Source: Candidatus Nomurabacteria bacterium
Lineage (GTDB): Bacteria; Patescibacteriota; Dojkabacteria; SC72; JAHDCA01
Direction of reading: 5' to 3'
Assembly (NCBI GenBank): GCA_020632375.1
Contig: JACKFR010000003.1
Coordinates: forward strand, 1,546 to 65,545
DNA: 64,000 bases
Below the pieces are notes generated by a model. The model worked only from the letters and a program-made list of their open reading frames with translations, was not told the origin of the DNA and ran no database searches. Numbering within the stretch: position 1 is the stretch's first letter; every line of letters begins with the position of its first letter. Both the position numbers and the translations under genes were made by a program. This document shows positions 865 through 23,239 of this stretch, in pieces.

Positions 865-1186
865 AAAGCAAGCATCTCATAAGCCGGATTCTGTTTAAAC
901 AGCCATCTATCTTTGCCCTGCCGCTCAAAGAGCGGATCGGTTGCTTCGGGTGGGGGTTACATTTCACAATCCCATTACTGATATTGCAGGTAGTCTCTTA
1001 CACTACCATTTCACCCTTACCGCACTGTTTATTCAACAATGAGGCGGTATCTTTCTGTTGCCCTTTTCTCCGAAAGATCACTCCCCCCCAGCTCTCGCTG
1101 GCACCCCTCTCGATATGTTCGAGAGACACTTGAAGTCCGGACTTTCCTCTAAGCATAGCTTAGCAGCTGTTTGAGATACTTGCGGC
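865..1186 (-). ncRNA. rnpB: RNase P RNA, bacterial type A, compact (~320 nt)
   Basis: The reverse complement contains AGAGGAAAGUCCGGACUUC, GGGGUGCCAGCGAGAGCUGGGGGGG, CGGUAAGGGUGAAAUGGUAGUGUAAGAGAC and ACAGAAUCCGGCUUAUGAG. Terminal P1 pairing is GCAAGUAUCUCA (1172..1183) with UGAGAUGCUUGC (868..879). Ends are approximate to +/-5 nt. Confidence 0.85.
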
Positions 1187-2347: not shown

Positions 2348-3751
2348 TTGATTATGTTTTTTAGAGCGATAACATTTATTCCTAATTTACCCTTCGCCAA
2401 AAAAGTGTTTGTAGAGGCAACCGTCATGAAAGGTTTGCCTTTGACAAAGATCTATGGTGTGAGTCAGGGATCGTCAAGAGCATTAAAAGACAAGCTCTAT
2501 TCTGCGATGAAAATCAGCGGTTTTAAAATCCCGCAGCGAAAAATTACAGTGAATTTCTCTTCTGAGATCTCTAAAGGAGAAAATTTCCACGAACTCCCAA
2601 TTGCAATTGCCATACTCGCAGCATCCAAGCAAATCAAACTTAATGAAGAAGTTTTCGCTTTCGGAAAGCTGGGGCTAAATGGAGAGGTTAATAAATCAAA
2701 TGGAATCTATCTATTCTTAGAGGGAGTCTCAAAAACTAATAGAAACAATCCTGTCATAATTGCGAATACAAATCAAAATGAAGTAGAACTTGCATTCCCA
2801 AAGCTCCAAGTATCTACGATTAAAACGCTTTCTGAGTTGAGGAAGCTCCCAACAAAGAATAAAAACACCAAAGTGAAATACCTGCAAGAAGAGCCTATCA
2901 GCCAGATCTCTTTCTATGTACCTCAAAATATTCATAGAGCTCTTAAGATTGGAATGACAGGTAGGCACAGCATGCTGCTGCTTGGCCCTCCTGGCTGTGG
3001 CAAAACAACTCTTGCCCATGAATTAAGAGAATCTTTACCTCAGGCTAACAAAGAAGAGATTCTGCACATATCAAAAGCATCCAGTCTTCACTCAGATGAT
3101 ATTGTGAAAAATAAAAGGCCACTAACCGAACTTAATCTATCAAATTTTAAATCTATCAAAAACTTTTTTCCTAAGCAGATTGTTTTTTCTGCTGGGGGAG
3201 TATTGCTCATTGATGAGCTTTTCAGAATAAATAAGAGTTTATTATATTCGCTCATGCAGCCCCTTGAAAAGAATCGAACTAGTTTCGATGACGGAAGTAT
3301 TTTACCTGTAGATTTACAATTTATTGCAACGGCGAATCCATGCAGGTGCGGGTACAGCGGCATTGATGATAACCGATGTAAATGCACCGCATACCAGCTG
3401 GTTCAATATAAGCAAAATGTTTCAAAGGCTTTTCTTGACAGGATAGACTTGATTATAAAGCTGAATCCCTCACCAAATGGGAATACAAAAAAGCTTCAAA
3501 TAAGCGAGCTAATACCATTAGATTGGCGACTTGCAAGAAGTAGGACAACACATCAATACAATGTCAAAATGTCGATAAAAGCTCAACATTATCTAGAAGT
3601 CATGATTGATAAAAGGAGAATTTCAATCCGGGACAAAGTAAGAATTACCAATCTAGCTCAAACAATCTCATATATTGAGAAATCCCGAAAGATAAGATCT
3701 GACCATATCATTGAGGCATTTGCACTGCGTGAAAGCGGAAGAGATTTTTAA
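2348..3751 (+). CDS. comM: Mg-chelatase-like AAA+ ATPase, ComM/YifB family
   Basis: The N-terminal Lon-like part GLPLTKIYGV...ELPIAIAILAASKQI resembles the ComM N-domain. Walker A is LLLGPPGCGKTTLA, Walker B is VLLIDEL, and ATANPCRCGY is the Zn-ribbon-like insert. Exact start is uncertain. Confidence 0.8.
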   Translation: MIMFFRAITFIPNLPFAKKVFVEATVMKGLPLTKIYGVSQGSSRALKDKLYSAMKISGFKIPQRKITVNFSSEISKGENFHELPIAIAILAASKQIKLNEEVFAFGKLGLNGEVNKSNGIYLFLEGVSKTNRNNPVIIANTNQNEVELAFPKLQVSTIKTLSELRKLPTKNKNTKVKYLQEEPISQISFYVPQNIHRALKIGMTGRHSMLLLGPPGCGKTTLAHELRESLPQANKEEILHISKASSLHSDDIVKNKRPLTELNLSNFKSIKNFFPKQIVFSAGGVLLIDELFRINKSLLYSLMQPLEKNRTSFDDGSILPVDLQFIATANPCRCGYSGIDDNRCKCTAYQLVQYKQNVSKAFLDRIDLIIKLNPSPNGNTKKLQISELIPLDWRLARSRTTHQYNVKMSIKAQHYLEVMIDKRRISIRDKVRITNLAQTISYIEKSRKIRSDHIIEAFALRESGRDF

Positions 3752-7572: not shown

Positions 7573-7588
7573 TAATCAGTTCAATAAA

Positions 7589-7705
7589 TTAACCTTGCCT
7601 TTGGTTATGGTTACGATAAACTCGACAATAAACATAAACACGCCCTTTTCTACGGACGATATAACAGTGGCGACATCTTTTCTTTACAGAAGATTTAACT
7701 TTCAT
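7589..7705 (-). CDS. rpmJ: 50S ribosomal protein L36 (not in the supplied ORF track)
   Basis: Hand translation of the reverse complement gives [38 protein letters not shown]. Cys11/Cys14/Cys27/His33 are spaced as in L36. The ATG overlaps the infA TGA (ATGA). Confidence 0.9.
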
Positions 7706-7938: not shown

Positions 7939-8061
7939 TAAGCAAAAACCCTTTATATTACCTTAAATCTATACCCTACTAAGAATCCCTCGGATTATAG
8001 CAAAGAGGCCTTAGATATGCAATAAACTCTCTGATTTTGATGACAAATGGATCTTGTGAGC

Positions 8062-11187: not shown

Positions 11188-11205
11188 TTCAATAACTATA
11201 AATCT

Positions 11206-13246: not shown

Positions 13247-13441
13247 TTACCAAACAGCTTTCTTTACTCCGGGAATTTCGCCTTCGGAAGCATGTTGCCT
13301 AAAACAAATTCTACACATTCCAAATTTTCGTATATATCCTCTTGACCGGCCGCAAATTTTGCAACGATTATACACTTTTGTTCGGTGCTTATTCGACCTT
13401 TTATATCTTTTTTCTTGTGCAATCTTAGATTTTTTTGCCAT
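13247..13441 (-). CDS. rpsN: 30S ribosomal protein S14, zinc-binding short (type Z) form
   Basis: [12 protein letters not shown]...[22 protein letters not shown]...GVKKAVW. The ATG at 13441 is preferred over the listed upstream start and overlaps the rplE 3' end. Confidence 0.9.
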
Positions 13442-13979
13442 CCTTCTTGAAAGGGAATCCAAATTTATCTAAAAACATCTTTGCCTGTTCATTATTTTTC
13501 GCAGTAGTAACAATCGTAATTTGCAAACCTCTAAGTTTTTGGACTTTATTCGGGTTTATTTCGGGAAAAACTGTATGCTCAGTAACCCCTAAAGTGTAAT
13601 TCCCACTGCCATCAAAAGCCCTCAATGATACACCTCTAAAGTCTCTTGTTCTTGGGAATACAACATTAACCAATTTATCAAAAAACTCCCACATTCTATC
13701 ACCTCTCAAAGTGGCAAAAACTCCTATATCCATGCCTTCCCGTACTTTAAAAGATGAGACAGACTTTTTTGCTCTTGCGACTACAGGTTTTTGACCTGTA
13801 ATATCAGTAATTATTTCGGATGCTTCTTCGATCGCTGCACTATTGTTTGTCGCATCACTAACACCAGTATTTACAACTATTTTTTCAAGTCTAGGAACTT
13901 CCATTATATTAGAAAACTCACCTTCTTGTAGAAGCTCTTTTCTAATCTTTGAATTGTATTCGTCTTTGAGTCTTGCCAT
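13425..13979 (-). CDS. rplE: 50S ribosomal protein L5
   Basis: [16 protein letters not shown] and [22 protein letters not shown]. Confidence 0.95.
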
Positions 13980-14766: not shown

Positions 14767-15033
14767 CTATTTTTCTTTATTAAATACTTGGGTAACCTTC
14801 CATCTTACATTCTTTGAGTAAGGTTTAGATTCTTCTATAAGCACTTCTGCATCTAAATCAATTTCATTATCGATATGGGCAAAATATACTTTTCTCCTCT
14901 CGACAATCTTTTTATATCTTGGGTGTGCGACTTGATTAACAACAAGAACTTTAACAGTCTTATTCATACTGTTGCCGATAACTACACCCTTAATAGATCT
15001 TCTTTTGCTTTTTTCAGGCAATTTATTTGCCAT
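14767..15033 (-). CDS. rpsQ: 30S ribosomal protein S17
   Basis: From MANKLPEKSKRRSIKGVVIGNSMNKTVKVLV... it aligns with the S17 N-terminus. The listed ORF's extra 20 N-terminal codons belong to the rpmC remnant. Confidence 0.9.
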   Translation of the reverse strand: MANKLPEKSKRRSIKGVVIGNSMNKTVKVLVVNQVAHPRYKKIVERRKVYFAHIDNEIDLDAEVLIEESKPYSKNVRWKVTQVFNKEK

Positions 15034-15114
15034 ACCTACCGATATTAAATTACGCTGACGGATTTTATCAATAATCCGAGTAAGATTCAACAACTATGGC
15101 TTGAAATTAGCCAT
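15034..15114 (-). pseudogene. rpmC: remnant of 50S ribosomal protein L29 gene (27 codons with in-frame TAG)
   Basis: Only 103 nt separate the rplP stop (15137) from the rpsQ ATG (15033). The minus strand reads AGGAG-6nt-ATG GCT AAT TTC AAG CCA TAG, then in frame LLNLTRIIDKIRQRNLISVG. That stretch resembles the L29 C-terminal helix (..IARIKTILRER..). Confidence 0.4.
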
Positions 15115-15136
15115 ATCTAGCTCCTACAACCAGAAT

Positions 15137-15550
15137 CTAAAGCTCAGATCTTTTAACAAACTTGGTTCGGACAGAAAGCTTATGCGCCGCCAATCTAAAT
15201 GCCTCTTGTGCAGTTTCTTCCGTAACACCACTGATTTCAAAAATCATGTTCCCTGGTTTAACAACTGCTACGAAACCCTCCGGTTCTCCCTTTCCAGCTT
15301 CCATCTTGGCATTCACAGGCTTTGAAGTATAAGACTTGTGAGGAAAAATTTTTATCCACACTTTACCCTTTCTCTTTATATGCCCTACGATTGCTCTACG
15401 TCCAGCTTCAATTTCGCGAGAATTAACCCAACCTCTTGTAGTGGCTTTCAAGCCATATTGACCAAAATCGACCTTATTATTAGCCCCTGCAACACCTGCC
15501 ATTTTGCCTCTAAATTCTTTTCGATGTTTTGTACGTTTCGGTTGTAACAT
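15137..15550 (-). CDS. rplP: 50S ribosomal protein L16
   Basis: [18 protein letters not shown]-terminus. Confidence 0.95.
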
Positions 15551-20930: not shown

Positions 20931-21069
20931 GGTAATGACGTGATGGATATTATCAGAAAAGCCTTCCGGTGGCAAGCGTTTTTAGCTTTGAATTTAGCCT
21001 TTTAAAGGCAGAAACAGGAAGGCAATATGTGTACTCAAATCGATTCTGGTTTTTGAACCTATTTTTGAT

Positions 21070-23163: not shown

Positions 23164-23239
23164 GTTTTGTGAATCTAATTTAAAGTCGGATGGATTTTAT
23201 ACTCCCTGCAGAAAGATTGCAAGTAAAAGGATTCTTTTA

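Follow-up and report, generated by a model that had tools for sequence, protein, structure and literature searches.

The ribosomal protein uL29 lies together with uL23 at the tunnel exit of the ribosome, beside the docking site of trigger factor and SRP. Within the S10-spc-alpha clusters, the E. coli spc promoter sits between rpsQ and rplN. The losses of ribosomal proteins on record for CPR bacteria comprise uL30 (everywhere), bL9, uL1 and, in some Peregrinibacteria, uL29 (Tsurumaki et al. 2022, PMC9297842), a record that also corrects the initial annotation of the present locus, which had taken loss of L29 to be unreported for CPR. In the available text of that paper, uL29 loss is named for some Peregrinibacteria only, and Dojkabacteria appear for bL9 only. 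Outside CPR, the available text of Galperin et al. 2021 (10.1101/2021.01.31.429008) names rpmC, the gene of uL29, among the losses of insect and protist endosymbionts, as the only ribosomal protein gene that 'Ca. Uzinura' and 'Ca. Walczuchella' lack and as lacking from 'Ca. Fokinia' too, and lists L29 among the frequently lost surface ribosomal proteins.

The locus described here is the rplP-rpsQ junction of a 64-kb window (the whole stretch of DNA that was analysed). As in the CPR losses treated in the available text of PMC9297842, a small protein of the large subunit surface is gone from its slot in the S10-spc cluster, the genomes are small and the loss is clade-wide, but compared with what is described there it has recurred inside a single class (at least three to four times), L29-positive members survive and a relic of the gene can be recognised. 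The likeness to the endosymbionts is that L29 is the first or only ribosomal protein lost, which fits a dispensable, surface-located protein, whereas the phylum and the lifestyle are others, and the available text of 10.1101/2021.01.31.429008 describes no regulatory relic that was kept.

The putative promoter found in the remnant can be compared with two known types. Like the internal promoters of S10-spc-alpha clusters, it would be a sigma-70 promoter that restarts transcription part-way inside a long ribosomal protein cluster, but it lies one gene earlier than the E. coli spc promoter, upstream of rpsQ, and ancestrally inside the coding sequence of rpmC. With the extended -10 (TGn) sigma-70 promoters it shares TTGnnn, TGnTAnAAT, a spacer of 17 nt and G+C-rich sequence ahead of the predicted start, whereas the sigma-70 activity of the Dojkabacteria site is predicted from its sequence. 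The literature searched gave no published internal promoter between rpmC and rpsQ, and no published report of L29 loss or of a promoter relic in Dojkabacteria. Loss of L29 is a known kind of event; what the present data strongly suggest in addition is that the remnant may be explained as an ancestral promoter, embedded in coding sequence, that outlived the gene.

The rplP-rpsQ junction

The gene map shows on the minus strand of the window a fusA-tuf-S10-spc-alpha ribosomal supercluster of typical build, in which L23, S3, L16, S17 and L14 were all confirmed by Pfam. The gene rplP (uL16, 137 aa; 15137-15550, minus strand; PF00252, E=1.7e-43) ends with the stop TAG at 15139-15137, and rpsQ (uS17, 88 aa; 14767-15033, minus strand; PF00366, E=5e-18) starts with the ATG at 15033. 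This start is in agreement with the N-termini of homologues, with the S17 Pfam domain, which begins 16 residues on, and with the gene calls, since 88 aa are called in three assemblies. The gap of 103 nt between the rplP end and the S17 start, as claimed in the initial annotation, is thus borne out by sequence, Pfam and homologues.

The 103-nt spacer (15034-15136, minus strand) is, by synteny with the L29-containing junctions of relatives, an in-situ relic of rpmC. Its sequence reads exactly as had been annotated. A Shine-Dalgarno-like AGGAG (15121-15125, minus strand) stands 6 nt 5' of the ATG of a six-codon ORF (ATG GCT AAT TTC AAG CCA TAG, encoding MANFKP; 15094-15114, minus strand, with ATG at 15114-15112 and TAG at 15096-15094), which is followed by twenty open codons, LLNLTRIIDKIRQRNLISVG (15034-15093, minus strand), in frame with and abutting the rpsQ ATG. 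From the ORF and an in-register alignment, these twenty codons correspond in position and frame to about codons 43-62 (SLNIKRNIARMLTVL) of L29 in the L29-positive Dojkabacteria.

An uninterrupted L29 ORF of about 60-75 codons was not found between rplP and rpsQ, where there are six codons, a TAG and twenty codons; the intact L29 genes of relatives have 63-75 codons. Six-frame translations of the 64-kb window, searched with an L29 HMM built from 33 L29s encoded at related junctions, contained no L29 (best E=1.6, at an unrelated place). The same HMM did not recognise the twenty codons as L29, and neither the 20-mer nor the part of the 108-aa ORF outside S17 had a Pfam match at E<=10. The homology between the remnant and L29 is visible by DNA register and synteny alone: position, strand and frame are shared, and 20 of 29 nt across the promoter stretch match the relative L006 (hand count on the alignment). 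The proposed resemblance of the twenty codons to the C-terminal helix of L29 hence stands for DNA-level homology, register and synteny, and fails at the protein level, where neither Pfam nor the HMM gives a signal. An internal deletion of about 40 codons, also proposed there, is a fair estimate (roughly 37-40 codons) provided that the 5' Shine-Dalgarno sequence and ATG are a relic too.

The window's L14 is encoded residue for residue in three other data sets, the NCBI MAG GCA_020429345.1, ENA ERZ28655594 and Logan SRR12358676. The three contigs belong to the same species and share 99.5-99.7% identity with the window, from which each differs by 10-22 substitutions over 3.4-5.5 kb; this shows that they are independent assemblies of other strains. 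Across the junction, 141 nt are 100% identical in all three, and each has the 103-nt gap. Since three independent assemblies share the junction, the deletion is not an assembly artefact, and misassembly, which had been named beforehand as fatal to the reading of a lost gene, is excluded. An assembly or sequencing error that hides an intact rpmC has for it only the general possibility of such errors in metagenome assemblies; set against the identical junctions in contigs with 10-22 differences elsewhere, and against dozens of related genomes from unrelated studies that have no L29 at the same place, it is extremely improbable. That rpmC is dead as a gene at its canonical locus is practically certain.

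We also consider it highly probable that uL29 is absent from the organism. To our knowledge, paralogues of rpmC are not a known feature of bacteria. The alternative, that uL29 is kept and encoded by an intact rpmC moved to another place in the genome, draws on the extent of the search, which covered 64 kb of the genome, and on the fragmentary state of the related MAGs. The gene's own 3' relic at the ancestral position, however, indicates deletion in place and not transposition, no L29 was found within the 64-kb window, and E. coli can do without L29, which several reduced genomes have lost (available text of 10.1101/2021.01.31.429008), so that we give such a move a low probability.

Some further features of the window were recorded with the gene map. 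Only 18 nt (11188-11205) separate rpsE (S5) and rplO (L15), and there is no rpmD (uL30) between them; the missing rpmD is an expected CPR hallmark and thus supports the taxonomic placement. The 129-nt 'spacer' between infA and rpsM (7573-7701, minus strand) encodes a 38-residue L36. For rpsN (S14, short Cys-containing form; 13247-13462, minus strand) the start is ambiguous, the longest ORF starting with TTG, having 71 aa and overlapping rplE by 38 nt; in calls elsewhere (L130, 3655-3849, and L131) the gene has 64 aa in one assembly, and in another there is no S14 call between L5 and S8. The sole Rfam family at gathering score in the window is the bacterial RNase P RNA class A at 865-1182 (minus strand; 157.5 bits, E=7e-49), and a 103-aa plus-strand ORF that overlaps it (822-1133) is probably spurious.

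Distribution of uL29 among Dojkabacteria

Relatives were collected with L16 as the query from JGI/ENA metagenomes and from a set of genomes with one representative of each GTDB species, and 129 loci were obtained. An exact look-up of the window's L16 gave no match. The nearest relatives are Dojkabacteria (WS6) with at most 72% L16 identity, from which the window's lineage appears poorly sampled, and the genome and metagenome scans contained no closer relatives, above about 72% L16 identity, that still bear L29.

Comparison of the junction across relatives, as had been suggested in the initial annotation, gave 56 Dojkabacteria-like junctions, 43 of them distinct. L29 is missing from 36 of the 43, as it is from the window, and is intact (63-75 aa) in the other 7. 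The gap between rplP and rpsQ is 183-252 nt in the L29-positive relatives and 44-71 nt in those without L29, compared with 103 nt in the window; in L003 there are ~70 nt and then an N-terminal extension of S17. The slot is empty in many independent genomes of coherent clades, and by these comparisons the loss of L29 is evidently not a private accident of the window's genome. The ribosomes of most sampled Dojkabacteria are, judged from their gene content, most likely built without uL29.

The S17 proteins of clade A (defined below) have a Lys/Val-rich N-terminal extension of ~15-35 residues (in L003 at 3379-3711, MKAKKVTTVKEKKVVKAKAVKKPVVKK; also in L005, L006, L008 and L010), which is missing in the window and in clade B.

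A neighbour-joining (NJ) tree was made from 11 concatenated ribosomal proteins (1,611 columns, 100 bootstraps). In this tree the window branches off first within the group, the other taxa being monophyletic at 94%, but the method is plain NJ and long-branch attraction could account for the basal place. Clade B (100%) is wholly L29-less. Clade A (100%) consists of the L29-positive genomes and two separately placed L29-less taxa, L014 and L003 (nodes 100% and 84%). In both, the relic has 3' sequence of the clade-A type (GACTGTTT; …GCTGACTGTTT…) and not of the clade-B type (…ACAAGCCGTT…). The tree placement together with these clade-A-type relics suggests that L29 was present in the common ancestor and was lost independently at least three, probably four times. 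By the same reasoning there would be at least three to four independent losses within Dojkabacteria with the putative promoter kept each time, and the window's loss appears as one of these, with a deletion boundary of its own.

The promoter-like element in the remnant

The twenty codons of the window contain a sigma-70-like arrangement, TTGAAT-17-TGATAAAAT, at 15090-15062 on the minus strand. The -35 hexamer TTGAAT (15085-15090, minus strand), recognised by pattern match and comparison, covers former Leu-Asn codons of L29, and the extended -10, TGATAAAAT (15062-15070, minus strand), with TG at 15070-15069 and the -10 hexamer TAAAAT at 15067-15062, stands 17 nt from it. The -10 ends 29 nt upstream of the rpsQ ATG on the same strand. 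From the promoter geometry, transcription is predicted to start at A/G (15056/15055, minus strand), 6-7 nt past the -10, so that the transcript would have about 22 nt of leader ahead of the rpsQ ATG; the predicted start is preceded by the G+C-rich CCGTC, and a GCCGTT block is conserved in relatives. The element of the window shares the L29 codon frame; its -35 reads L-N and its -10 I-D-K-I.

The pattern TTGnnn-N14-TGn-TAnnnT, with its 17-nt spacer, occurs at exactly one site per junction in all 56 Dojkabacteria-like junctions, compared with only 2 of 34 non-Dojkabacteria junctions (L046 and L047, which are mutually related and have it in a different register). The form shared among Dojkabacteria combines a -35 TTGnnn with an extended -10 TGnTAnAAT at a spacing of 17 nt and lies within the codons of the L29 C-terminal helix. 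In L29-positive genomes the reading AGC TTG AAT ATA AAG AGA AAT ATT GCT AGA ATG CTC ACT GTT TTA = S L N I K R N I A R M L T V L places the Leu-Asn/Lys codons at the -35 and ATT-GCT-AGA-ATG at the extended -10, TGCTAGAAT. In those without L29, the rplP stop is followed by 0-4 nt, CTTGAG, 14 variable nt, TGGTAGAAT and then ACAAGCCGTT. When the 36 L29-less junctions are aligned, the invariant columns are nearly all TTG, TG and TA.AAT, plus one T downstream, and both the spacer and the downstream leader vary. The remnant of the window coincides base for base with this conserved putative sigma-70 extended -10 promoter upstream of rpsQ.

Single consensus promoter matches in this A+T-rich DNA are at chance level (20 found, 16.4 expected), a single match is uninformative, and the case for a promoter comes wholly from conservation across genomes. 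In the L29-positive ones, the conserved protein motif IARxLT accounts for some of the likeness at the DNA level. The codons under the element, however, never vary in the seven L29-positive genomes (Leu44 TTG, Ile50 ATT, Ala51 GCT and Arg52 AGA), against a background, from 11 ribosomal protein genes of the same genomes, of 78 codon-invariant columns out of 666 amino-acid-invariant degenerate ones (11.7%). By residue, the background invariance is 3/38 for Leu, 5/36 for Ile, 3/52 for Ala and 20/64 for Arg; the joint P of the four frozen codons is about 2e-4, and no codon-invariant column of the background has TTG or GCT. The remainder of L29 is background-like, with 1 of 9 columns codon-invariant. 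In the L29-less lineages coding constraint is gone, and bases that stay invariant there through deep divergences while their neighbours drift point to a promoter under selection. The independent deletions all spared the element.

These observations bear on the simplest alternative, a plain decaying pseudogene whose likeness to a promoter comes from A+T-rich DNA and from the A+T-biased codons of I-A-R-M. ATT-GCT-AGA-ATG is indeed a natural A+T-rich spelling of IARM, and the lack of regional enrichment of consensus matches (20 against 16.4) is in line with such a pseudogene, but decay would have to leave TTG, TG, TA.AAT and the 17-nt spacing invariant in 36 non-coding junctions in which spacer and leader are randomised, to let the deletions of at least three to four lineages, the window excepted, end 0-4 nt from the -35, and to go together with frozen synonymous sites in the L29-positive genomes that include the otherwise never frozen TTG and GCT. 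We regard it as unlikely. On the comparative evidence the relic is quite probably a functional promoter, and the surviving piece of rpmC would almost certainly have been retained for the promoter that it provides to the ribosomal genes downstream.

The reading that we prefer, and hold to be probable, is that rpmC was deleted in place and that the survivor would be kept as the rpsQ promoter, made of ancestral dual-use codons of the L29 C-terminal helix. In the common ancestor, these codons (…L-N/K-I-K-R-N-I-A-R-M…) would have doubled as a sigma-70 promoter with -35 TTGAAt, a 17-nt spacer and the extended -10 TGcTAGAAT, from which transcription would begin shortly before rpsQ and supply the section rpsQ-rplN-rplX-rplE… of the cluster. 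At each loss of rpmC the deletion would have taken everything down to the -35 hexamer and spared the promoter, and the roughly 60 nt left from the rpmC 3' end would be a retained signal rather than a slowly decaying pseudogene. The window has an extra 44 nt upstream of the -35 (AGGAG, ATG, five codons and TAG), which are probably a functionless leftover, and its lineage would be a less trimmed intermediate.

Sites of similar type are found elsewhere in the window. The stringent extended -10 pattern has 2 matches in 64 kb, with 0.34 expected, the second one lying in the map-infA spacer. This site (7994-8022, minus strand; TTGCAT-N14-TGC-TATAAT) is on the coding strand of the 123-nt spacer, 56 nt upstream of infA, and is likely a promoter for infA-rpmJ-rpsM-rpsK-rpsD-rpoA-rplQ. 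With the relaxed pattern, 7 of 13 sites fall in intergenic DNA, which makes up 5.2% of the window (0.7 expected, a 10-fold excess), and all seven face a gene on their own strand, tuf among them, at a distance of 10-101 nt. By this distribution the organism appears to use the extended -10 promoter type. Sigma-70-like sites were also seen in the spacers upstream of tuf (20947-20975, minus strand; TTGCCA…TGATAATAT) and of fusA (23194-23222, minus strand; TTGCAA…TAAAAT). Taken with the rpsQ and infA sites, this suggests that the 20-kb cluster may be transcribed from at least four promoters.

In L046 (about 4640) and L047 (about 4767), of another Patescibacteria lineage, TTGACT-N14-TGT-TAAGAT/TAATAT was found on the plus strand at the 3' end of an intact L29. 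The codon register is another one, with the -35 on the L-T codons of IAQxLT, and in L047 unusually long spacers of about 196 and 178 nt flank L29. A promoter directly upstream of rpsQ may be more widespread in CPR.

Other possible functions of the remnant and its meaning

The 5' part of the remnant is particular to the window, as AGGAG-N6-ATG with five codons had no counterpart in any relative aligned. The ORF encoding MANFKP also forms a hairpin of 6-7 bp (ATGGCT-aatttca-AGCCAT), and is probably non-functional debris. The AGGAG at 15121-15125 is a stronger Shine-Dalgarno sequence than any before the 31 real genes of the cluster (20 nt upstream compared), most of which have no obvious one. In outgroups the rpmC start has a separate Shine-Dalgarno sequence and ATG after rplP, while in L29-positive Dojkabacteria it overlaps the rplP stop as TAATG. 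The AGGAG-ATG piece may go back to the former translation start of rpmC; alternatively, the AGGAG could match by chance or serve a tiny upstream ORF.

The open frame of the twenty codons into rpsQ raises the question whether the remnant is translated, either as an S17 that starts from the TTG at 15093 and carries a 20-residue L29-helix extension, or through read-through of the TAG as a mini-L29/S17 fusion. N-terminal extensions of S17 are known in some relatives (L003, L005-L010), and an AGGAG does stand upstream of the ATG; the extensions of the relatives are, however, Lys-rich and unrelated, the TTG at 15093 has no Shine-Dalgarno sequence and lies upstream of the predicted transcription start, and the S17 Pfam domain, the homologue N-termini and the three 88-aa gene calls all fit the ATG at 15033. 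Among the other L29-less lineages, stop codons in the frame of L29 close the relic. TAG serves regularly as a stop codon in this cluster, where it ends 11 of the 31 genes, rplP, rpsC and rpsQ included, and reassignment or read-through of TAG was for this reason rejected. Translation of the remnant in either form is very unlikely.

A ribosomal protein leader or other structured RNA was also considered and rejected. Rfam gave no match for the junction at gathering and permissive thresholds, RNAalifold on the junction alignment returned 0 pairs and no consensus structure, and folding energies of the junctions were no better than those of shuffles (mean z-score -0.55, with 3 of 27 below -2). An inverted repeat, GGCTTG…CAAGCC, brackets the putative promoter in L29-less junctions, with GGCTTG overlapping the -35 and CAAGCC just past the -10, and leads to a related alternative, namely that the conserved block acts, instead of or in addition to a promoter, as an RNA structure within read-through transcripts or as an inverted repeat of operator type. 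The helix (columns 6-11/39-44 of alignment A1) pairs in 82% of cells compared with 76% in shuffles (0/500), 8 cells are changed on both sides, and the window can form equivalent stems, GUUGA/UCAGC and CGGAUU/AAUCCG, at about 15091-15053 (minus strand). The signal is nevertheless weak: the two-sided changes come from four divergent sequences only, one of the pairs fails to form in 13 of the 31 sequences, and the columns that never vary belong to the promoter and not to the helix. Together with the negative RNAalifold, Rfam and folding results, this makes an RNA or operator function improbable.

Overall, it is reasonably likely that the 3' end of rpmC was a dual-use sequence whose promoter role outlived the gene at least three to four times, leaving most of the class without uL29 at the tunnel exit, and that the window is an incompletely trimmed case. 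The repeated loss of uL29 across a bacterial class provides a natural experiment on the simplified ribosomes of CPR bacteria. For annotators and completeness estimators, rpmC is not to be expected in Dojkabacteria. We know of almost no promoters mapped in CPR bacteria, and the set of sequences with and without the gene is well suited for testing promoter recognition in this group. A regulatory signal inside a coding sequence would here decide which part of a dying gene outlasts genome streamlining; where an embedded signal sets the surviving part in this way, short conserved "pseudogene" fragments in reduced genomes may often be regulatory.
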